In this document: piece after piece, positions 54,169-64,000 of the stretch
How the letters are laid out: every line of letters begins with the position of its first letter
Position numbering within the stretch: the first letter of the stretch is position 1
Origin: Myxococcota bacterium
Lineage (GTDB): Bacteria > Myxococcota_A > UBA9160 > SZUA-336
Assembly: GCA_965247115.1 (NCBI GenBank)
Contig: CBDFGR010000003.1
Span: 1,728,001 to 1,792,000 of the forward strand
DNA: 64,000 nucleotides
Reading direction: 5' to 3'
Translations under genes and position numbers: made by a program
Notes under the pieces: generated by a model
Told to the model about the DNA's origin: nothing
What the model saw: the letters and a program-made list of their open reading frames with translations, nothing else
Database searches by the model: none

Positions 54169-55332
54169 CTAGCGCGCGTGCGCGCGCACGGCTTTCGCCA
54201 TGCGTTCGAGTGCCTCGGTGAGGAGGCTCTTCGACGTGGCGAAGTTCAGTCGGACGCAGCCTTCCCCGCCCTGACCGAAGCTCGCGCCCCGACTCAGCGC
54301 AACCCTGGCCTCCTCGAGGAAGAACTCATAGGGTTCGTGAGGGAGTCCGAGCTCGCGGCAGTCCAGCCACGCCAGATACGTTCCCTCGGGCCGGGAATAG
54401 CGAACCTCCGGAAGCTCCGCAGCAAGGAACTGCTCGAGCAGGTCGAGATTTCCCGAGACGTAATGAAGGACGTCGTCTAGCCAGGGCTGGCAGCGCGTCC
54501 ACGCCAGCTCTGCGGCAGATGTCCCGAGCGATCCCAGCCCGCCAAGGATATGCCTCGAAAGGGATCCGAAGCGCTCCTGCAGGTCGGCGCTGCCGAAGGC
54601 GGCCACCGAGCAGCGCAGCCCCGCGATGTTGAAGGCCTTGGTCGCCGAACTGAGCGTGACCGTGCGCGCCTCGACCTCCGGACCCAGCGTGGCAAGCGGA
54701 ACGTGCTGATGCGGAGCGAACACGAGATCCGCGTGGATCTCGTCACTGATGATGACGAGGTCCGCCTCGATCGCGAGCTCAGCCAGCTGCTCGAGCTCCT
54801 GGCGGCGGAACACGCGGCCGGTGGGATTCTGCGGGTTGCAGAACATGAGCGCCTCGGTGTCGGCATCGATACAGGCACGCAGGGCTTCGAAGTCGATCGT
54901 GTAGCCAGAGTCGTCTACCACGAGCTCGTTCGTGACCATTCGCCGATCGAGGTGGCTGACGCAGCTGAGAAAGGGCGGGTAGACCGGGGTTTGCACCACG
55001 GTGCCCGCACCTTCGGAGGTGAGCGTCGAGAGCGCGACGTACATGCCCTGGACGACGTCGGTGATCACTGCGACCCGCGTCGGGTCGAGCTCCCAGCCAA
55101 AGCGCTCCTTCACGCGCGTGGCGAAGATCGTGGGCAGCCCCTCGAGTCTGGGATGGCGCGGATAGCCCACGTCGGAGTTCTCGAGGGTTTCGCGCAAGAG
55201 CTCCCGGATCGGCTCGGCTACCGGAAAGTCCATGTCGGCAACCCAGAGGGGCAGCACGTCGTCGGGATAGTGCTGCCACTTCTCGCCTCGGGTCTTGCGC
55301 AGGCGCCGGATGTCGACGTCATCGAAGCTCAT
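54169..55332 (-). CDS. MalY/PatB family PLP-dependent C-S lyase
   Basis: LPLWVADMDF, CNPQNPTG, SDEIHAD, SATKAFNIAG, EGTYLAWLD, RLNFAT. Confidence 0.92.
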   Translation of the reverse strand: MSFDDVDIRRLRKTRGEKWQHYPDDVLPLWVADMDFPVAEPIRELLRETLENSDVGYPRHPRLEGLPTIFATRVKERFGWELDPTRVAVITDVVQGMYVALSTLTSEGAGTVVQTPVYPPFLSCVSHLDRRMVTNELVVDDSGYTIDFEALRACIDADTEALMFCNPQNPTGRVFRRQELEQLAELAIEADLVIISDEIHADLVFAPHQHVPLATLGPEVEARTVTLSSATKAFNIAGLRCSVAAFGSADLQERFGSLSRHILGGLGSLGTSAAELAWTRCQPWLDDVLHYVSGNLDLLEQFLAAELPEVRYSRPEGTYLAWLDCRELGLPHEPYEFFLEEARVALSRGASFGQGGEGCVRLNFATSKSLLTEALERMAKAVRAHAR

Positions 55333-55347
55333 CCGCGCATTGTAGCG

Positions 55348-58300
55348 CTATTGGAGGCGGACCCTCTCGCCGCTGCGAAGGTACAGGAGCTCGAGCGCGG
55401 GCGGAGCGGCGTTGGGGAAGGCGCCCGCGACCCCCCGAGCGTAGACCTCCAGCTGCGCTCGGTAGCGCTCGCGAGCGCCGGACTCCGGCTCCCGATCGGT
55501 CTTGTAGTCCGCCACGACCAGGCGCCCGTCAGGATCTCTGTAGAGCAGGTCGATGGTGCCGCTCCAGGCTGTGCCGTCCTGGTCCTTGAAAAGCAGCGGA
55601 AGCTCGCGTCCCACGACCTCGACGCTGGCAAGGTATGCCGGGAGCTCGCTCTCCAGGAGCGAGTTCAGGACCGCCAGGCTGTGCCGCTCGAGCTCGGCCG
55701 GCTCGCCCCCATCGTTGCGGCACACCCGTGTGACCGCGGCGCGTAGCAGGCGAAGGGCGACGGCGCGACTGCGAAAGTCCCAGCGCTCGAGCACCTCGTG
55801 CAGCACGGTTCCGATCTGTCGGCCGCGCGCGGCTCCGCCGACGCCGACGCCGACGGGCGCGCTCGGAACGTCGCTCCCGTCGGACCGCGCCGGGGTTCGC
55901 TCCCCCGCGCCCGCGGGATGGCGAAAGGCCGGCCTCGCCATGGCACGGGCGCGCGCGGCAATGCGCTGGGCTTTCCCCACCGACCGCGAGAGATCCGCGC
56001 GCCCCTTCCGGGTCGGCAGGCGCTGCGCCGCGGGCGACGTCTCCACGAGCCGGTGGCTCACCTCGGGGGCGCCAGGAAGAACGGCATCGTTCGCGAGTCC
56101 CTCGCTCGGGTAGCCCCACGCTGCAAGGTGCTGCACGGGTGCATCCGCCGCGACCCGCTGCCGCGGGCCATGGACCAGGATGAGCCGCTCCGAAGCGCGC
56201 GTACAGGCAACGTAGAACAGGCGCCGGTTCTCGGCACTCTCGTGCTGTGCTTCCAGAGCCTCGCGCACGATGGCGCCGGCGGACAGCGGCCCGGCGGTTC
56301 GCAGCGCAAGGCTCTTGTGCTCGCGGAGCCAGTGCACGCTCGTGGTCGCCTCGCCGCGCGGACCTCCCGCCGGACTGCGTGCGAGGTCGGGCAGGAACAC
56401 GATCGGGAACTCGAGGCCCTTCGCGCCGTGGATTGTCAGCAGCGTGAGCTCTTCGTCGCGGTCCACGGGCGGACCAAGCGCATGCTCGCTGTGCTCGAGC
56501 CAAGGCAGAATCGACGCAATGGTGTGTGCGGAGTCTCGGCGTGCGAGCTCGATCAACGGGTCGAGACGCGCGCGCAGGTTGGCGAGTCGCTGCGTCCCGT
56601 CGGACGCCGCGGCGTGCAGAGCGAGCAGACCAGTCTCCTCCGCCAGCTCGAACAGGAGCGAGTCGAGCGGGCGTTCCAGCGACGCGGTCTGCAGATTACG
56701 CAGAAGTGCGTACGTTCTGGCGATCGCCGGAAAGCGCGCCGGATCCGGCTCCGTTTCGAGATACGACCAGGTGGATCGCGCCCGCTGGGCGGTCGCGGCG
56801 AAGGCCGCCAGCTCGGCATCCCGGACGCCACCAAGGGCGGAGCGCAGCACGCCGAGCACTGCGGGCGCGTCGTCCGGATGCGCCAGAGCCCGCAGCAGCG
56901 CCAGCAGCTGCTGACCTTCGGGGCGGTCGAACAGGTCGCGCCCGGTCTCCAGCGCGTAGGGGATTCCGTGCTCGCGCAGTGCGCCCGTGTAGAGCGGCAC
57001 GCTCGCGAAGGCCCGGAACAGGATGGCGATCTCCGCGGCCGCGATCCGCTCGGCCCGCAGCTCCCGGGCGATCCAGCTCGCGATCGCAGCGGCCTCGTCG
57101 CGGCGCGCGCGGTCCGCGCTGCGCCCGACGTCTCTGCCCACCGTCCAGACCTCCACGCGCGGCTGTCCGTCGCAACTCAGGGGCGGGCGTGCGGAGTGAA
57201 GCCCATCGTAGCCTGAGTAGGCGGCTCCATCGGTTCCGGCGGGAGCATTCAGGAGGGGAGGAAAGAGTCGATCCAGCGGCTCCAGCAGCTCCGGCGGAGC
57301 GCGGAAGCTCCTCGTGAGCGTGAGGCGCTGGCCGCCGGAGCGCTCCACATGAGCCACCGCCATGTGGTACGAGGCCATGTCCGCGCCGCGAAAACGATAG
57401 ATCGCCTGCTTGGGATCCCCCACGATGAAGAGCTTGCCGGGTGCCAGTCGTGTTTCGAAGGCGCGGGCGGCGGGCGGCCCACTCGCGTCCTCGGCCAGGA
57501 AGAAGACGAGCTCGTACTGCAGCGGGTCGGTGTCCTGGAACTCGTCGACCAGCAGGAGCCGGAGGCCGCGCGAGATCCTTCGCCGTACGTCGGGGTAGTC
57601 GGCCAGCATGTTCCGTGTCAGCAGCAGGAGCGCGTTGAACGGGAGCAGGTTGCGCCGGCGCGACTCCGCGAAGACCTGCCGTGCGAACGGGCTCAGGAGA
57701 TCCAGGGCGCGCCCGCACAGCTCGTCATCCACGCGCTCGAGTCGGTCGAGCAGGCGGTGCGCGGCTCTGGCACAGCGCTCGGCCTCGGGGGCGTTCTTGG
57801 AGGTAGGGGGGGGCCCGTCGAGCAAGCCCCGGGACCCTCGCGCTGACTGGAAGCGGGCGCTCCGGAGCTCCACGCGAAACGCCTCGATTCCGCCCGACAG
57901 GAAGGCCTGCAGGACACGGTCGACGACGTGGAGGTAGCTCTCGGGACCCAGGGTCCCGTCACCGCGCACACCCGCATGCGTGGCCAGCTGCGCGCGAATC
58001 AGGGGCTCGAGCAAGGCGTGCGTCGGTGCCAGCTCGGTTCGACCCGCTGGCAGCTCGAAGCTCGCGAGCCGCCACCCGATCTCGCGCAGCTCGCCAAGGT
58101 CGATGCCGCGCAGCACGGCCCGCCAGGCGTCGCGGGGCTCTCCCTCCGGTCCATGACTCCCGCTGAGGAACTTCTCCCAGAGCTCTTCCTGCAGCGCGTC
58201 GAAGAGCGGACCGTCGTCGATCGCGAAGTCGGGGTCGACTCCGGACTCCGCCGGGAAGCGCCGGAGCAGCGCCGCGCAGTAGCCATGGATCGAGTCGATG

Positions 58301-58842
58301 CTGGCGCGCTCGATCTGTGCGAGCAGATGCTCGGCTCGCGAGAGCAGTGCCGTCCGCGAGATGCGCGTTGCAAGAGTCGCGTACACGCGGTCTGCGGTAC
58401 TTGCGAAACCCGCAGGTCTTGCGGGACCCGGCCCACGGGCGGCCGTGGGCCACCCGCCTACGCTCGCCTGCGGCTCGCTGCGCGCCGCGCCTGCGGCGCG
58501 GCTTGCGGGTGCCTGGTCGTGCAGTGGCTGGTCGTCGCTCGGGGTTTGGGATCTCGGGGGGCGCGGTGGGTTTGAGGGGATTGGGTCCGGGGGGTTGTCC
58601 GGGTGCGTTGCCAGATTCACCAGTCGTGCGAGGGCTGCTTCGAGGCGGGTGCGTAGCTCGGTGGCGGCTCGCTCTGTGAAGGTGATCGCGGTGATTTCGG
58701 TCATGTCGAGCTCTTGGTCGACGAGTTGGGTGAGGAGGCGCTCGATGAGCAGGCTCGTCTTGCCGGTGCCGGCTCCGGCGACGACGATGACGTTGCGATC
58801 GTAGCTCTGGACGGCGCTCTGCCGGGCTTCTGCGTCGCTCAT
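55348..58842 (-). CDS. addA: AddA-like UvrD helicase-nuclease
   Basis: AGAGTGKT, ITFT-RAA, VDEFQDT, VGDPKQAIYRFRGA, TIHGAKGLEF, YVA-TRA, G-IDLLY..ADYKT. Confidence 0.85.
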   Translation of the reverse strand: MSDAEARQSAVQSYDRNVIVVAGAGTGKTSLLIERLLTQLVDQELDMTEITAITFTERAATELRTRLEAALARLVNLATHPDNPPDPIPSNPPRPPRSQTPSDDQPLHDQAPASRAAGAARSEPQASVGGWPTAARGPGPARPAGFASTADRVYATLATRISRTALLSRAEHLLAQIERASIDSIHGYCAALLRRFPAESGVDPDFAIDDGPLFDALQEELWEKFLSGSHGPEGEPRDAWRAVLRGIDLGELREIGWRLASFELPAGRTELAPTHALLEPLIRAQLATHAGVRGDGTLGPESYLHVVDRVLQAFLSGGIEAFRVELRSARFQSARGSRGLLDGPPPTSKNAPEAERCARAAHRLLDRLERVDDELCGRALDLLSPFARQVFAESRRRNLLPFNALLLLTRNMLADYPDVRRRISRGLRLLLVDEFQDTDPLQYELVFFLAEDASGPPAARAFETRLAPGKLFIVGDPKQAIYRFRGADMASYHMAVAHVERSGGQRLTLTRSFRAPPELLEPLDRLFPPLLNAPAGTDGAAYSGYDGLHSARPPLSCDGQPRVEVWTVGRDVGRSADRARRDEAAAIASWIARELRAERIAAAEIAILFRAFASVPLYTGALREHGIPYALETGRDLFDRPEGQQLLALLRALAHPDDAPAVLGVLRSALGGVRDAELAAFAATAQRARSTWSYLETEPDPARFPAIARTYALLRNLQTASLERPLDSLLFELAEETGLLALHAAASDGTQRLANLRARLDPLIELARRDSAHTIASILPWLEHSEHALGPPVDRDEELTLLTIHGAKGLEFPIVFLPDLARSPAGGPRGEATTSVHWLREHKSLALRTAGPLSAGAIVREALEAQHESAENRRLFYVACTRASERLILVHGPRQRVAADAPVQHLAAWGYPSEGLANDAVLPGAPEVSHRLVETSPAAQRLPTRKGRADLSRSVGKAQRIAARARAMARPAFRHPAGAGERTPARSDGSDVPSAPVGVGVGGAARGRQIGTVLHEVLERWDFRSRAVALRLLRAAVTRVCRNDGGEPAELERHSLAVLNSLLESELPAYLASVEVVGRELPLLFKDQDGTAWSGTIDLLYRDPDGRLVVADYKTDREPESGARERYRAQLEVYARGVAGAFPNAAPPALELLYLRSGERVRLQ
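58416..58506. repeat. Long palindromic element, copy F, in-frame inside addA
   Basis: GTCTTGCGGGACCCGG..GGCCACCCGCCT..CGCTGCGCG..GCTTGC; the addA frame stays open through it. Confidence 0.8.
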
Positions 58843-61800
58843 GACGCCTCCCCGTTGAGCTCGAAGTAGGGTGCGAAGCTGGCGAATGCGGCGACCCGTT
58901 GCGCGCTCGAGGGGTGCGTGCGCCGACATGCGACCGCGTAGGCGCAGTAGCGGCACCCGTCGTGCTCGCGAAAAGGGAATTGGCTGTCGCGAAGCAGCTC
59001 GCTGAGCACGGCGAGAGGCCGGGCCGTGCTCGCCTCGATGGTTTCGAGGTCGAGCTGTCGCTCTCGCTCGCGTGCCCCACGGCGATCGCGTTCCGGTCTG
59101 AGCGGTACGGAGAGAACCTCTCCGTAAACGAACGGCGTGTCAAAGCTGCGAGCCGCCGCCAGCGCGTAGAGCGGCACCTGCAGCGCGGTCCCTCTCTCGA
59201 CGTTGCCGCGGCGCACGAACGCGTCGGGATCGCGACGGGTCTTGTAGTCACCAACTCGCAGCACTCCTGAGGGACTGCGCACCACGCGGTCCACGCGTCC
59301 GCCCACCTCGAACTTGCCCGCGGCGGCCACGAAGCGCAGCTCCTCTTCGGCGCGCAGGTCGCTCACACCCTCGGGGAGCAACAGCTCCAGGTCGCGCTCG
59401 ATGAAGTCCAGCGCGGCGGAGGTGAGCTGCCGCTGGAGCGCGGCCCACAGCTCCGGGTGGCGCCGCGCGAGGACGCGGCGCAGCTCAGGCGCGAGTGCGC
59501 TCATCGCATGCGGCAGCAGACCGCGCGCGCGCTCCAACGCGTCGTGTGCCGAGGTGCCCGGTCGCAGTGCTCCGGCCTCGAACAGCTCCTGGTAGAGGCG
59601 CGCGAGGAGCGCGTGCACCACGGTGCCCGCCTCCGCCGCTCCGAGCACGTTCGGCGCTGGCGCGTCGAGCTCGCCTACCCGAAGCAGGCGCTGAAAGAAG
59701 GCCTTGAGCGGGCAATTGCCGAGCGTCTCCAGAAAGCTCGGTGAGACGGTCTCCGGAACGGGCGGCGCATCGCTTCCGAGCACCCCGTCGTAGTCGAGCG
59801 GTCCGTCGAGCGAGTCGGTGGTGGCGATGTGTGCGAGCCCAGCAGAGAGGCGCTCGACCGAGTCCGGGAGGTAGGTGCGGGCCAGCGCGAGCGTATCGCT
59901 CTGCTCGTGCGGGTCAGAGGCGAGCGCGCTTGCGACCAGCGCCTCGCTGGCACTGAGCAGGCCCGCGTCCCTGGTCGGCCGTGCGTCGAGCTCCGACAGG
60001 TGCACGGGATGCTCGCCGGTGACTACCGGCAGATCTCGCAGAAACGCGGAGGCCGCCAGATCGCGCTCCCAGGCGTCGGCGCACGGCCTGGTGAGCGTCA
60101 GGCTCGCGCTCGCCTGCGACAGGAGCAGTCCGAGGAGGAAGCGCTCCTCCCGCTCGGCGAGCTCGGCTGCCGGCACGGGCCGACCCGTCGTGCGCCGCAC
60201 AACGAGCCGCAGCTCGTCCGAGAGGAAGGGATCCTCGCGGCGCTGGCGTGGCCAGTTCCGGTGATCAAGCCCGATCAAGAACAGGTGCGGCGTGGCGAGC
60301 GCCCGAGCCTGCAACGCATCGAGCACCCGGACCCCTCCGTTGTCCTCGCTGTGTGGCTGCCAGCTCGCCGATCGAAGCGCCTGCTCGACGCTGGCACGCA
60401 GCTCGTCAGCCGAAGGCCGCTGCTCGCTGTCTCCCGCGACCTGGTCGACGTCTGCGACCTGGTCGACGTCTGCGACCTGGTCGACGTCTGCGACCTGGTC
60501 GACGTCTGCGACCTGGTCGACGTCTGCGACCTGGTCGACGTCTGCGACCTGGTCGACGTCGTCCAGGAGTGCAACGCCTCGGATCGCGTCCCTCGCCAGC
60601 TCATCGGTGCTGGCGTGATCCCCCGCGCTCCCGAGTAGCCGGTCGCCGATTTGGAGTAGCCGAGTCGCACACTCGCGGAAGCTGCGAGCTTCGCGGAGCC
60701 GCCTGGCGGCGGCGTCGAGGTCTGCAAGACGCTCGCGTAGCGAGTCCAGCAGTCGCGGCTCGATGCGACGGGACTCCTGCGCCGCAAGGCGCTCGGCATC
60801 GGCGAGCGCGACCTGCCAGTCCTCTCCCTGCACCACGGCGGCGCGCCGGCAGAGCCAGCTGGCGAGCTGCGCGAGTGCCTGATCTGAAGCGTTGGCGAGG
60901 CGCGGCGAGCGCAGCAGGCGCAGGACGGCGCCGCGTTCCAGATCCCCGAAGAGTGCGTGGACGAGGTCGAGCCAGACCCGAACCGTCGGGAGGCGCAGCA
61001 CAGGCTGGGACAGCGACGAGGTGAAGGGGATCTCGTAGCGGCCGAACACGGGCTCGATCCAGGCCGCATAGGGCTCGAGCGAGCGGGCCACCACGTGGAT
61101 CTCCGCTGGTCTCGTCCCCGCGTCCAGCAGACACAGGATCTCACGCGCGACGCATTCCAGCTCCTGGCGGATACCGCGCGTCCGCAGCGAACGAAGTGCT
61201 CCCGACGGAGCGGCGAGCTCCCGCTCGACGAGCGGCTCTGCAACCACTCTGGCTGGCTCCGGGATGAAGCCCCAGGGCCAGCTCTCCCGCAGCTCGCGTG
61301 CGAAGTCTCCCCCCCAGTCAGGCTGGATCATCCGCAGCGGCAGGACTGCCGCGAGAGCCTCGACCAGGTCGCCGGCAGACCCGACGAGCTCGGTCGCTCC
61401 GTGAAGCTCCGCGCGCTCGAAGCCCATGCGTTCGGTCCAGCCACGCGTCCCGTCTGCCGCCAGGCGGAACAGGCCCACACGTTCGTACATGCCGCGCTCC
61501 GCCAGCCTCTGCAGCGCGCGCTCGTAGGCGGCCAGGACCTGGCGTAGCTCCATTGCCCGCTCCGGGAGGGCGCCGGGAGAGACGCCGGCGTCCCGCAGAT
61601 CCCGGAGCGTTTGCGCGAGCGTTTTCGCCAAGCTCGGTCGCTGGTTGATCAGCGCGGCGAGGCGCGGGCTCGCGCTGACGCAGCGCTGCACCACGCGCGT
61701 GAGGGCCGCTTCGTCGAGCCAGCCGGAGATGGTGACCTCCGTCTCCGCCGCGCAGGCCTCTGCGAGGCCGCGCAGTGTCAGGAAACTGCGACCGAGCACG

Positions 61801-61910
61801 GCACCCCCGCTCCCTTCGCGGAGTGCGTGTACGCGTCGCTCCCCCAGCACGCGCGCTGAGGCGCAGACCTCGAGGATTCGCGGTACCGAGAGTCGCTCGC
61901 TCTCTTTCAA
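58839..61910 (-). CDS. addB: AddB-like partner: inactive helicase scaffold plus Fe-S PD-(D/E)XK nuclease
   Basis: SPS-LE----CP, G-VVH, GRVDRV, VGDYKT, LQVPLY, CRYC-Y---C; TTG start overlaps the upstream stop, and its stop overlaps the addA start. Confidence 0.8.
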   Translation of the reverse strand: MKESERLSVPRILEVCASARVLGERRVHALREGSGGAVLGRSFLTLRGLAEACAAETEVTISGWLDEAALTRVVQRCVSASPRLAALINQRPSLAKTLAQTLRDLRDAGVSPGALPERAMELRQVLAAYERALQRLAERGMYERVGLFRLAADGTRGWTERMGFERAELHGATELVGSAGDLVEALAAVLPLRMIQPDWGGDFARELRESWPWGFIPEPARVVAEPLVERELAAPSGALRSLRTRGIRQELECVAREILCLLDAGTRPAEIHVVARSLEPYAAWIEPVFGRYEIPFTSSLSQPVLRLPTVRVWLDLVHALFGDLERGAVLRLLRSPRLANASDQALAQLASWLCRRAAVVQGEDWQVALADAERLAAQESRRIEPRLLDSLRERLADLDAAARRLREARSFRECATRLLQIGDRLLGSAGDHASTDELARDAIRGVALLDDVDQVADVDQVADVDQVADVDQVADVDQVADVDQVADVDQVAGDSEQRPSADELRASVEQALRSASWQPHSEDNGGVRVLDALQARALATPHLFLIGLDHRNWPRQRREDPFLSDELRLVVRRTTGRPVPAAELAEREERFLLGLLLSQASASLTLTRPCADAWERDLAASAFLRDLPVVTGEHPVHLSELDARPTRDAGLLSASEALVASALASDPHEQSDTLALARTYLPDSVERLSAGLAHIATTDSLDGPLDYDGVLGSDAPPVPETVSPSFLETLGNCPLKAFFQRLLRVGELDAPAPNVLGAAEAGTVVHALLARLYQELFEAGALRPGTSAHDALERARGLLPHAMSALAPELRRVLARRHPELWAALQRQLTSAALDFIERDLELLLPEGVSDLRAEEELRFVAAAGKFEVGGRVDRVVRSPSGVLRVGDYKTRRDPDAFVRRGNVERGTALQVPLYALAAARSFDTPFVYGEVLSVPLRPERDRRGARERERQLDLETIEASTARPLAVLSELLRDSQFPFREHDGCRYCAYAVACRRTHPSSAQRVAAFASFAPYFELNGEAS
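60436..60560. repeat. Perfect 18-bp tandem repeat x7 encoding (DVDQVA)7 in addB
   Basis: GCGACCTGGTCGACGTCT: six full copies plus 17 of 18 nt. Confidence 0.97.
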
Positions 61911-63052
61911 CGAAGCTCGCGAAAGAAGTCCCGGATCTCCCCGATCAGCACGTCTGGCTCTTCGAGTGCTGCGAAGTGCCCCCCGGACTTCAAGCGTGCC
62001 CAGCGTCGGATGTTGTAGCGTCGCTCCGCCCAAGCGCGCGGCGGCTTCGCCATCTCGCCGGGAAAGAGGGCAACGCCGGTCGGCACCTCGACCCGCTCCT
62101 GCCCGGCGCCGAAGCCCCCTGTGTGCATGGTCTCGTAGTAGAGTCGCGTACTCGACGTGATCGACTGCGTGATCCAGTAGATCATGATGTTGGTCAGGAG
62201 CTCATCCTTGGTGAAGCGGCTCTCTACGTCTCCGCCACAATCGCTCCAGGTGCGGAACTTCTCCACGATCCATGCTGCCAGGCCCACGGGGGAGTCGTTC
62301 AGCCCGTAGCCCAGCGTCTGGGGCTTCGTGCCCTGGATCCGCTGGTAGCCCGTCTCCTGGTTGCGGAACTCAGCGGTGCGGGCCAGGTCCTCCAGCTCGT
62401 CGGGAGCGAGCCCCGCGGTCGGGTCCGCCTCTCCTTTGGGTCGTCCGGCAACCACCATGTTGAGATGGATACCCCGGACGTGCTCCGAGTCGAGCAGCCC
62501 GAGCCAGGTGGAGACGATTGCCCCCCAGTCCCCTCCTTGCGCCCCGTACGCCTTGTACCCAAGGGCCTGCATGAGCCTGGCCAGCGTCTCGGCGACCGCG
62601 CGCGCGTCGAAGCCGGGTCTGCTCGGTGCGCTCGAGAAGCCGTAGCCTGGCATCGAGGGACACACCACGTGGAAGGCGTCCTCGGCGCGCCCGCCGTGCG
62701 CTACGGGATCGGTGAGGGGGCCGAGGATCTTGTAGAACTCGAAGACCGAGCCTGGCCAGCCGTGCGTGATGACCAGCGGGAGCGCGTCGGGCTCGCTCGA
62801 CCTGGCGTGTACGAAGTGGAGGTCGAGGTCAGCGAGCTTCGTCTTGTACTGGGCGTAGCGGTTCAGGATTTTCTCCTGCTCTCGCCAGTCGAACTCGTGC
62901 TGCCAGTAGTCGACCAGCTCGCGCAAGTAGCCGAGCTCGGTTCCGTACTCCCAGCCCGCGCCTTCGAGTTGATCGGGAAAGCGCGTGTTCGCGAGCCTGA
63001 GCTGCAGGTCTTCTAGCAGAGAGTCCGGAACGTGGACCACGAACTTCTCCAT
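61907..63052 (-). CDS. Epoxide hydrolase (EHN plus alpha/beta hydrolase)
   Basis: FDWR-QE, HGWPGS, PGYGFS, QGGDWG, DSPVGLAAWI-EKF, GGHFAA-E. Confidence 0.93.
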   Translation of the reverse strand: MEKFVVHVPDSLLEDLQLRLANTRFPDQLEGAGWEYGTELGYLRELVDYWQHEFDWREQEKILNRYAQYKTKLADLDLHFVHARSSEPDALPLVITHGWPGSVFEFYKILGPLTDPVAHGGRAEDAFHVVCPSMPGYGFSSAPSRPGFDARAVAETLARLMQALGYKAYGAQGGDWGAIVSTWLGLLDSEHVRGIHLNMVVAGRPKGEADPTAGLAPDELEDLARTAEFRNQETGYQRIQGTKPQTLGYGLNDSPVGLAAWIVEKFRTWSDCGGDVESRFTKDELLTNIMIYWITQSITSSTRLYYETMHTGGFGAGQERVEVPTGVALFPGEMAKPPRAWAERRYNIRRWARLKSGGHFAALEEPDVLIGEIRDFFRELR

Positions 63053-63230
63053 TGGGTGCCTCCACCTCGGCAGCAGCGACGCTCTCCCGGTTGCCCGAGA
63101 AGGCGTCGCCGAGCGCCGGTCTCCCCACGAGACGCTCTATGAGAACACCCGCCCTGGCGTCTCGCAAGTCATCACTTCACAGCGTCGAAAAACGGTTGAC
63201 TCCGACGGACGCTGGGCGTAGGTAGTATGT

Positions 63231-63550
63231 ATCGGTCGGTCGAGACCGAGGGTACGGAGGAGTGAGGTACTCGCCCCGTCGGCTCGATCAGTCCTCGGAC
63301 AAATGACCGACCGAGATGTCGAGGGGGCGGGTGTGCGGGTGCTCCGGTGACCCACCGGGGGCGTCAAACATAGCCGGGAGGGCAGAAGGCGCTCTCCGAC
63401 TCGAGCGACACGACGAGGTGTGTCGCCACCACGGTGCCGCGACGACACGAGTCGGTGTTCTTCTGCCGCAGTCAGTGCCCTACAAGACCTGTCTGGCTTC
63501 CGCGCAGAAGTGGTTCCGTGGCTGAGCGTCACCGTCACCCGCAGCCTCCA
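63231..63550 (+). ncRNA. Candidate structured non-coding RNA, family unknown
   Basis: At least 8 nested helices with G-U pairs on the + strand; TTGACT and TAGTAT boxes just upstream; no credible ORF. Confidence 0.5.
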
Positions 63551-63573
63551 ACTCTCTTCTCGCGCGACCGGTC

Positions 63574-64000
63574 CTACCGGAAGTCGTGAGATAGTGGGAG
63601 CTGGGCGCGCAGGCTAGCGCCGTCCAAGCGCTCGAACCTGCGTGCCTGCACGTGGACCACGCCTTCCTGGTTCTGAAGCGGACCCTCGATGAGCAGCAGC
63701 CCGGCGCCGTGAATCACGGCGCGGTGCTGATGGAACATGTCGGGCACCACGATCGCGTTCGCGTGGCCGGTCTCGTCCTCGAGGGTGATGAAGAGGAAAC
63801 CTTTTGCCGTACCGGGCCGCTGGCGCACGATCACCACACCGGCAGTGCTTACCCATTGACCATTGGGCGCCTGCCGCAGCTCTTTCGCTGTCAGCACCCC
63901 CCGCTCGTGGAGCTCCTTGCGGAAGTGCGTCATCAGGTGCGCGCCCGTCGTGAGGCCGGTCCCCCGGTAGTCGGCTACGGTTCGCTCGAAGTCGTTCATC
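63574..64000 (-). CDS. dnaE2: Error-prone DNA polymerase DnaE2, C-terminal part (5' end outside window)
   Basis: ADY---GL, RQRPGTAKG--F-TLEDETG OB fold, terminal SHDFR (DnaE2 SRDF-type motif). Confidence 0.92.
   Translation of the reverse strand, partial: MNDFERTVADYRGTGLTTGAHLMTHFRKELHERGVLTAKELRQAPNGQWVSTAGVVIVRQRPGTAKGFLFITLEDETGHANAIVVPDMFHQHRAVIHGAGLLLIEGPLQNQEGVVHVQARRFERLDGASLRAQLPLSHDFR

Follow-up and report, generated by a model that had tools for sequence, protein, structure and literature searches.

Near its end, the window (the whole stretch of Myxococcota DNA analysed here, 64,000 nucleotides long) has a gap of 520 nt between an epoxide hydrolase gene and the 3' end of dnaE2, both on the minus strand. 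Does this gap contain a gene for a structured RNA, and what could such an RNA do? The original prediction placed in it a non-coding RNA (ncRNA) of about 320 nt with two domains of nested helices. That the gap harbours an RNA gene is shown by its conservation, by a promoter motif, by helices that covary and by matching contigs in RNA libraries. Judged by sequence comparison the ncRNA family is real, its fold is complex and well supported, and it has apparently not been described before. The features of the locus are listed in Table 1.

Table 1. Features of the ncRNA locus and related genes; helices are predicted, and positions are those of the window unless a contig is named.
Feature	Position	Strand	Basis or remark
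ncRNA gene, ~320 nt (homologues ~300-365 nt)	about 63232..63549	+	ends placed by promoter position, P0 and contig limits
Epoxide hydrolase gene, divergent neighbour (context only)	61907..63052	-	Pfam EHN, NCBIfam
dnaE2 (error-prone DNA polymerase) 3' end, convergent (context only)	63574..64000	-	NF004225, E 1e-202, C-terminal 508 aa
-35 box TTGACT	63196..63201	+	TTGAC in 27/28 homologues, TTGACA in 20
-10 box TAGGTA, 17-nt spacing	63219..63224	+	hexamer starts TA in 25/28 homologues
Pseudoknot 1: Pa 63234-41/63305-12 and Pc 63246-50/63294-98, leader into Pb loop	63234..63312	+	
P0 63264-67/63545-48, closes three-way junction with Pb and P1	63264..63548	+	89% paired
Pb 63269-83/63318-32, 13-15 bp	63269..63332	+	80% paired, 9/13 pairs two-sided
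Rod, closing part: P1 63335-41/63536-42, P2 63345-51/63528-34, P3 63358-62/63513-17	63335..63542	+	
A-rich internal loop, 5' strand 63363-74, 3' strand 63503-12; then P4 63375-80/63497-502	63363..63512	+	
Apical arm: P5 63381-89/63459-67, P6 63396-402/63449-55, P7 63405-11/63434-40, P8 63415-20/63427-32	63381..63467	+	
Pseudoknot 2: 63423-26 in the apical loop with 63441-45 in the strand right after P7	63423..63445	+	
Variable side hairpin	63468..63496	+	absent to ~70 nt among homologues (alignments)
RNA contigs	63244-63540; 63239-63509; 63271-63541 (twice); 63341-63548		near-identical contigs
Contig, RNA status guessed	63256-63524		
6S-like gene, full-length	G000:C2:209614-209784 (L026:1501-1671)	-	36.7 bits, under Rfam cut-off

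The ncRNA is a single-copy conserved gene confined to one family of the Myxococcota. With a covariance model, 28 of the 32 genomes in the family each gave one copy, and 118 genomes from elsewhere in the class gave none; the model covers the rod only (205 positions, built from 16 sequences), and the class-wide search used strict filters with 16 candidates scored per genome. The family genomes in which this search found no copy are G027 (92% complete), G005 (73%), G006 (75%) and G021 (58%). Throughout the phylum (150 genomes) only two matches lay outside the family, with E values of 0.19 and 0.46. Searching at the DNA level gave matches in 23 of 61 genomes, 20 of them with full-length homologues, and three short matches were discarded. 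A pattern scan of metagenomes returned 42 stretches, 26 of which scored 42 bits or more, and no match in viral contigs; in a species collection the 27 matches consisted of 11 chance matches and 16 duplicates of known loci. The weak matches L021-L023, L025, L145 and L188 were rejected as chance or coding sequence.

The predicted fold combines a three-way junction with a long rod, which is interrupted by an A-rich internal loop; a variable side arm branches off, and there are two pseudoknots. We evaluated the model of 14 helices on alignment A7, an unfitted MAFFT alignment of 28 sequences, in which 88% of the cells are paired and 64 of the 88 pairs change on both sides, counts which ignore the relatedness of the 28 homologues. 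None of 500 shuffles reached any of the measures, and 39-49% of the cells were paired with slid partners compared to 88% for the model. One must keep in mind that the revised structure was selected on the same sequences that were used for counting covariation.

The RNA as such is borne out, by its homologues rather than by folding energy, whereas about half of the helices first listed had to be replaced: that two-domain fold is 79% paired on alignment A1, the revised structure 91%. Helices 63232-41/63305-14 (92-96% paired, 5 pairs with two-sided change), 63246-53/63291-98 (79-89% paired), 63334-41/63536-43 (99.5-100% paired), 63381-88/63460-67 (8 of 8 pairs changing on both sides) and 63396-403/63448-55 (93% paired on A7, 57% on the first alignment) were retained. 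Three were given up, namely 63323-28/63544-49 (68% paired), 63372-78/63492-98 (64%) and 63405-11/63420-26 (69%). A hairpin at 63342-60 could form (88% paired) but shows little covariation above shuffles, its percentage of pairing being reached by 39 of 500 shuffles, its two-sided pairs by 474 and its two-sided cells by 4. In the model with better support, the bases assigned to an inner hairpin at 63254-79 belong to P0 and Pb. Folding energy alone is weak and does not discriminate between the strands: when compared with shuffles the whole RNA has a modest z-score of -2.29 on the plus strand, compared to -2.49 on the minus strand, and the values are -1.60 for domain 2 alone and -1.65 for the homologue L118.

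In the 5' part Pa (92% paired, 5/7 pairs two-sided on A7) and Pc (79% paired, 4/5) both cross P0 and Pb, and the crossing helices may represent alternative states rather than coexisting ones. P0 has one two-sided pair out of four and a nearly invariant 5' strand; a short helix at its place was also predicted unaided from nine metagenome sequences. RNAalifold with nine metagenome sequences recovered the rod unaided, and did not recover Pa, Pc and Pb. Within the rod P1 is 99.5% paired, and two-sided changes on A7 occur in 6/7 pairs of P2, 3/5 of P3, 5/6 of P4, 8/9 of P5, 5/6 of P6, 7/7 of P7 and 5/6 of P8. P3 and P4 have a low probability in single-sequence folding of the window's own copy and of several homologues. 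The internal loop measures 12 x 10 nt, or about 10 x 7 nt if P4 is extended by two G-C pairs. Pseudoknot 2 contains the third-ranked mutual-information pair of alignment A6 (A-U in 14 and G-C in 13 of 28 sequences), which was aligned by a model without this pseudoknot; it is 89-90% paired with 3/5 pairs two-sided. In both predicted pseudoknots two segments of an upstream strand would pair with the loop of a hairpin, and the long stems of pseudoknot 1 (approximately 13-16 bp each) raise a question of folding topology. Invariant bases are concentrated at P0/P1 and beside the internal loop, and a purine-rich GGAGG-like linker is near-conserved among homologues. A small ORF at this SD-like linker was discarded by eye, its start codon being absent in many homologues and its spacing too short.

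The divergent metagenome member L172 (minus strand, about 150-545) has an insertion of approximately 40 nt between P5 and P6. Its 5' domain is largely rewritten in sequence with the pairings retained; by eye, Pa/Pc, Pb, P0 and pseudoknot 2 are all kept in different letters.

Which strand is transcribed, and from where? TTGACT at 63196 had been noted upstream of the predicted RNA and proves to be a real -35 box, TTGAC being kept in all but one of the 28 homologues. Its proposed partner, TAGTAT at 63223 with a non-canonical spacing of 21 nt, has to be exchanged for the hexamer at 63219-24, which gives the canonical 17 nt; the pattern TTGAC-N17-TA is conserved. This -10 box was overlooked by a consensus scan because such a scan demands T at position 6. 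In 28 of 28 loci P1 is preceded at a distance of 128-152 nt by a TTGA(C/T) box (sought within a 50-nt range and found in every locus), and in run X14 the -35 box of a close strain reads TTGACA. The promoter is likely of the sigma70 type. We also observed in the upstream regions of tRNA genes of the same genome that several stable-RNA promoters consist of TTGAC followed by a -10 box starting with TA, and that in the promoters of ncRNA homologues the -10 box often has no T at position 6.

Over the pairs of the model 195 cells are G-U and 71 are A-C. This imbalance and the conserved promoter assign the RNA to the plus strand, in agreement with the direction favoured originally from G-U positions, and we infer transcription from about 63232.

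The transcript itself was sought in sequence runs, and nine RNA or presumed-RNA runs contain 6-14% of the words in a query of 2 kb. Six of the seven runs examined, from three studies, hold a long near-identical contig confined to the predicted gene, within 63239-63548. The contig of the seventh run (X1), 63314-63996, continues into dnaE2, and a contig from a run of unrecorded type, probably DNA, passes through the locus (60531-64000). Contigs of two studies end at 63540-63548, which corresponds to the end of P0. As the contigs carry no information on strand, exact ends or level, they represent a hint rather than a map, and missing cover by RNA contigs is no evidence of silence.

The genes around the ncRNA bear on whether it acts in cis or in trans. 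An epoxide hydrolase gene is the upstream neighbour in 20 of the 28 loci, with another neighbour in the other 8; dnaE2 lies downstream in 12, leaving 16 without dnaE2 nearby, and in the remaining loci different genes flank the ncRNA on either strand. The neighbours identified are hydrolase, addB, patB and dnaE2. The convergence with dnaE2 that had been pointed out therefore holds for the present locus (NCBIfam error-prone DNA polymerase) and does not hold as a conserved link. The view of a stand-alone RNA is strengthened by the conserved promoter of its own and by a downstream gene that varies among loci in identity and orientation. Because of this variation the ncRNA is not a leader; the consistent same-strand downstream gene expected for a riboswitch or cis leader was not found, both gene and strand varying. 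Taken together, the promoter, the varied neighbours and the G-U excess argue for a plus-strand RNA acting in trans, neither a leader nor tied to dnaE2.

It is accordingly very improbable that the conserved stretch acts as a cis element, either as a leader on the minus strand for the epoxide hydrolase, addB and addA genes or as a site in the DNA. The hydrolase gene does adjoin in most loci (20/28), but the G-U bias and the promoter indicate the plus strand, 8/28 loci have another neighbour, and the hydrolase gene occurs without adjoining ncRNA in G027, G017 and other families. Beside hydrolase orthologues from other families no similar RNA was found.

Beyond the epoxide hydrolase gene follow addB-like and then addA-like genes. 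We observed that patB, the addA-like, the addB-like and the epoxide hydrolase genes form one minus-strand block (54169-63052), that the adjacency of hydrolase and addB is repeated across the family, and that dnaE2 is often found on the opposite flank of the ncRNA. This adjacency with dnaE2 on the other side locates the ncRNA within a DNA-repair gene cluster. At 60440-60570 in the addB-like ORF an 18-nt unit, encoding six residues, is repeated in tandem and in frame about seven times, and the addA-like ORF has a proline-rich insert (58400-58530), from which 18 and 15 nt, both in frame, are missing in the close strain of run X14.

A small RNA that acts by base pairing, e.g. as an antisense RNA to the 3' end of dnaE2 or through SD-/anti-SD-like stretches, or else a sponge for CsrA, appears improbable. 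Such a role would suit a family-restricted RNA with a near-conserved GGAGG-like linker in a genome that has csrA (G000:C3:1914837-1914989), and dnaE2 is convergent in 12/28 loci. Against it, nearly the whole RNA is engaged in covarying helices, merely one or two GGA motifs are available to CsrA, and the RNA does not overlap dnaE2, which is not nearby in 16/28 loci.

Could the ncRNA belong to a known family? None of the 4227 Rfam families, raiA (RF03072) included, matched at the locus or across the ncRNA of 12 homologous loci, in keeping with the novelty originally claimed. Look-alike motifs of group II introns, RNase P and c-di-GMP riboswitches were considered and dropped with the lack of an Rfam match. 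Models of tmRNA, RNase P and SRP do not match at the locus; the true copies of tmRNA, RNase P and small SRP lie elsewhere in the genome, as does a 6S-like gene. A search of the literature yielded no description of the ncRNA family; the main text of 10.64898/2026.10.21.760802 makes no mention of Myxococcota or dnaE2, while its supplements and cluster database may hold the family unnamed. A bacterial Y RNA was rejected because the Rsr/TROVE protein (PF05731) was found in 0/32 family genomes, in a search whose control was found in 2/14.

A divergent 6S-like RNA had been kept in mind from the beginning. The genome's canonical 6S gene lies elsewhere (Table 1), and the ncRNA is not this gene; a role like that of 6S or Ms1 may still apply. 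RF00013 gave no match to the ncRNA at E<=10, and our own HMM and covariance model of the ncRNA did not score ten 6S loci. There is a likeness in plan: in both RNAs an internal loop follows a closing stem and precedes an apical stem, which begins in a GGGAG-like manner, and a 5-bp helix borders the loop, whose strands of at most 12 and 10 nt in the ncRNA are close to the lengths of about 11 nt each in the genome's 6S-like RNA. A difference lies in the alternative hairpin, which is on the 5' side in the ncRNA, whereas the hairpin of 6S lies opposite the 5' bulge (PMC8414754). The lengths differ as well, with 180 nt for 6S and approximately 320 nt for the ncRNA, and there is no model match either way. 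A motif common to the ncRNA and the present genome's 6S was discarded, as it is not retained in other 6S genes of the family.

Matches to 6S occur in only 7 of the 32 family genomes and in 0 of 5 well-assembled ones that were re-searched. The sensitivity of this search must be considered: the genome's own 6S falls below the cut-off (36.7 bits), and the control was detected in 5/14 genomes. The scarcity may thus reflect replacement or merely poor sensitivity. Six genomes including the present one have both the ncRNA and a 6S-like gene. A hunt for 6S by synteny in five genomes reached only similar coding stretches. As side observations, relatives of the 6S-like gene in six other family genomes have the same bubble motifs as this gene and some have long apical insertions, and none was found in the 12 genomes of the largest genus.

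The second RNA for comparison is Ms1 of the Actinobacteria, described in the sections considered of PMC4191392 and PMC9130861 as about 300 nt long with a long hairpin, a central bubble that matters for binding the core enzyme, and extra end structures. The ncRNA has in common with it the size of approximately 300 nt, the stand-alone gene with its own promoter, the long hairpin with an internal loop and a terminal structure. It differs in phylum and in its ends, which form a pseudoknot and a three-way junction (two pseudoknots in all), and core binding is only a prediction for it. The Ms1 model (RF02566) gave a single match in the own genome, elsewhere, with E 3.2; its control reached the cut-off in 0/14 genomes, so that this search has no positive control. 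The consulted descriptions of 6S and Ms1 mention neither pseudoknots nor a side arm beside P4, both of which belong to the fold of the ncRNA. Polymerase-binding RNAs have little sequence in common between lineages and further classes are expected, according to the part of PMC11077062 used here. CoRP RNA of Corynebacterium, from the same source, is likewise lineage-restricted, structured and missed by 6S and Ms1 searches; the likeness is one of description, and unlike the ncRNA it is 516 nt long and processed.

On the whole the ncRNA is likely a stable RNA that binds a protein. With its duplex-loop-duplex plan, size and stand-alone promoter it fits the polymerase-binding RNAs 6S, Ms1 and CoRP. 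We therefore put forward, as the leading but tentative reading by analogy, that it is a trans-acting decoy of the Ms1/6S kind to which RNA polymerase binds. The single-copy gene of about 320 nt would be transcribed from about 63232 on the plus strand by its own promoter, and the RNA would fold stably and compactly, with pseudoknot 1 and P0 presumably shielding its ends. The duplex-loop-duplex part (P1-P3, internal loop, P4-P6) might then occupy the DNA channel of the polymerase as a mimic of an open promoter, and the polymerase could perhaps be stored or titrated in this way, e.g. during slow growth. The distribution favours such a decoy, 6S being matched in 7/32 family genomes and the ncRNA found in 28. 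Against it count the absence of sequence or model similarity to 6S and Ms1, the six genomes with both RNAs in view of the one polymerase-binding RNA type per species that is proposed in the part of PMC11077062 considered, and the loop, which with the P4 extension shrinks to a size smaller than a typical bubble. The pseudoknots, the side arm at P4 and the contig of run X1 running into dnaE2 are further points against.

A more specific form, which we regard as rather unlikely, would be a new class of polymerase-binding RNA, doubly pseudoknotted and possibly threaded, that exists beside 6S in some genomes and replaces it in others. Were this true, one cell could contain two different classes of polymerase-binding RNA. 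Polymerase binding in itself would extend the theme of 6S, Ms1 and CoRP to a Gram-negative lineage and put the proposal of one type per species to the test.

Nearly as likely as the decoy is an RNA with a compact tertiary fold, of the same sort as the raiA motif/ModT RNA, which would bind a putative protein other than polymerase or oligomerise. A strand of the A-rich loop might dock into the junction or the pseudoknots, and the invariant P0/P1 junction could serve as recognition surface. This is in agreement with the two pseudoknots and two junctions with covariation and with the clustering of invariant bases at P0/P1 and on the flanks of the loop. According to the part of PMC11706538 considered, ModT is abundant and stable, acts in trans, has two pseudoknots and lies among genes that are uninformative; the raiA motif (RF03072) resembles the ncRNA in being structured, trans-acting and set among variable neighbours. 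The comparison is weakened by the absence of any match in Rfam, whether to raiA or to another family, by a different helix order and size, and by the far narrower distribution of the ncRNA, confined to one family.

Few bacterial ncRNAs are both large and intricate in their fold; several of those that are proved to be ribozymes, guides or core regulators. The well-supported fold, the defined promoter, more than 28 diverse homologues and the presence in RNA libraries make the ncRNA ready for experimental study, while its narrow distribution limits the general impact. A ribozyme or a ligand-sensing RNA of a new fold is suggested by the double pseudoknot, the junctions and the small invariant core; we give this little weight. 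By eye no known catalytic motif was recognised, the sole ribozyme match was a hammerhead at chance level in one homologue (E 5.1), unbroken RNA contigs span most of the gene, and no gene is consistently downstream.

The last reading, a domesticated relative of the IS110 bridge RNA that would guide a recombinase-derived protein in trans, is hardly credible. It arose from L146, the best-looking match beyond the family (20.6 bits; E 0.46 per genome). This match is located in the left end of an IS110 element, ahead of the recombinase gene, and has a 13-nt stretch in common with two homologues; orphan sRNAs linked to IS110 exist, as reported in the part of PMC12288879 considered. Bridge RNAs also resemble the ncRNA in having an internal loop within a hairpin. 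However, 1 of 9 related IS110 left ends scores and the other eight do not. The IS110 RNAs pair the shared motifs with other partners and form two separate loop hairpins in place of the single rod of the ncRNA, whose loop strands are A-rich and are not varied guides. Transposase_20 occurs in 9/32 family genomes with 1-4 copies, the L146 recombinase in 0/31, and no recombinase is among the identified ncRNA neighbours. Given the non-scoring relatives, the different pairing and the sparse recombinases, the L146 match was treated as chance.

In their own right L146:415-2025 (G033:C39) and L207-L214 represent an IS110 clade with recombinases of approximately 410-440 aa and a conserved two-loop RNA in the left end. 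The second loop of this RNA contains a stretch complementary to the left end of the element, as a bridge RNA would have. The genome of the present locus itself has two divergent IS110-family ORFs (G000:C3:1212336-1213241 and G000:C2:1294741-1295427; 385 and 393 aa) and a fragment at C3:2388249.
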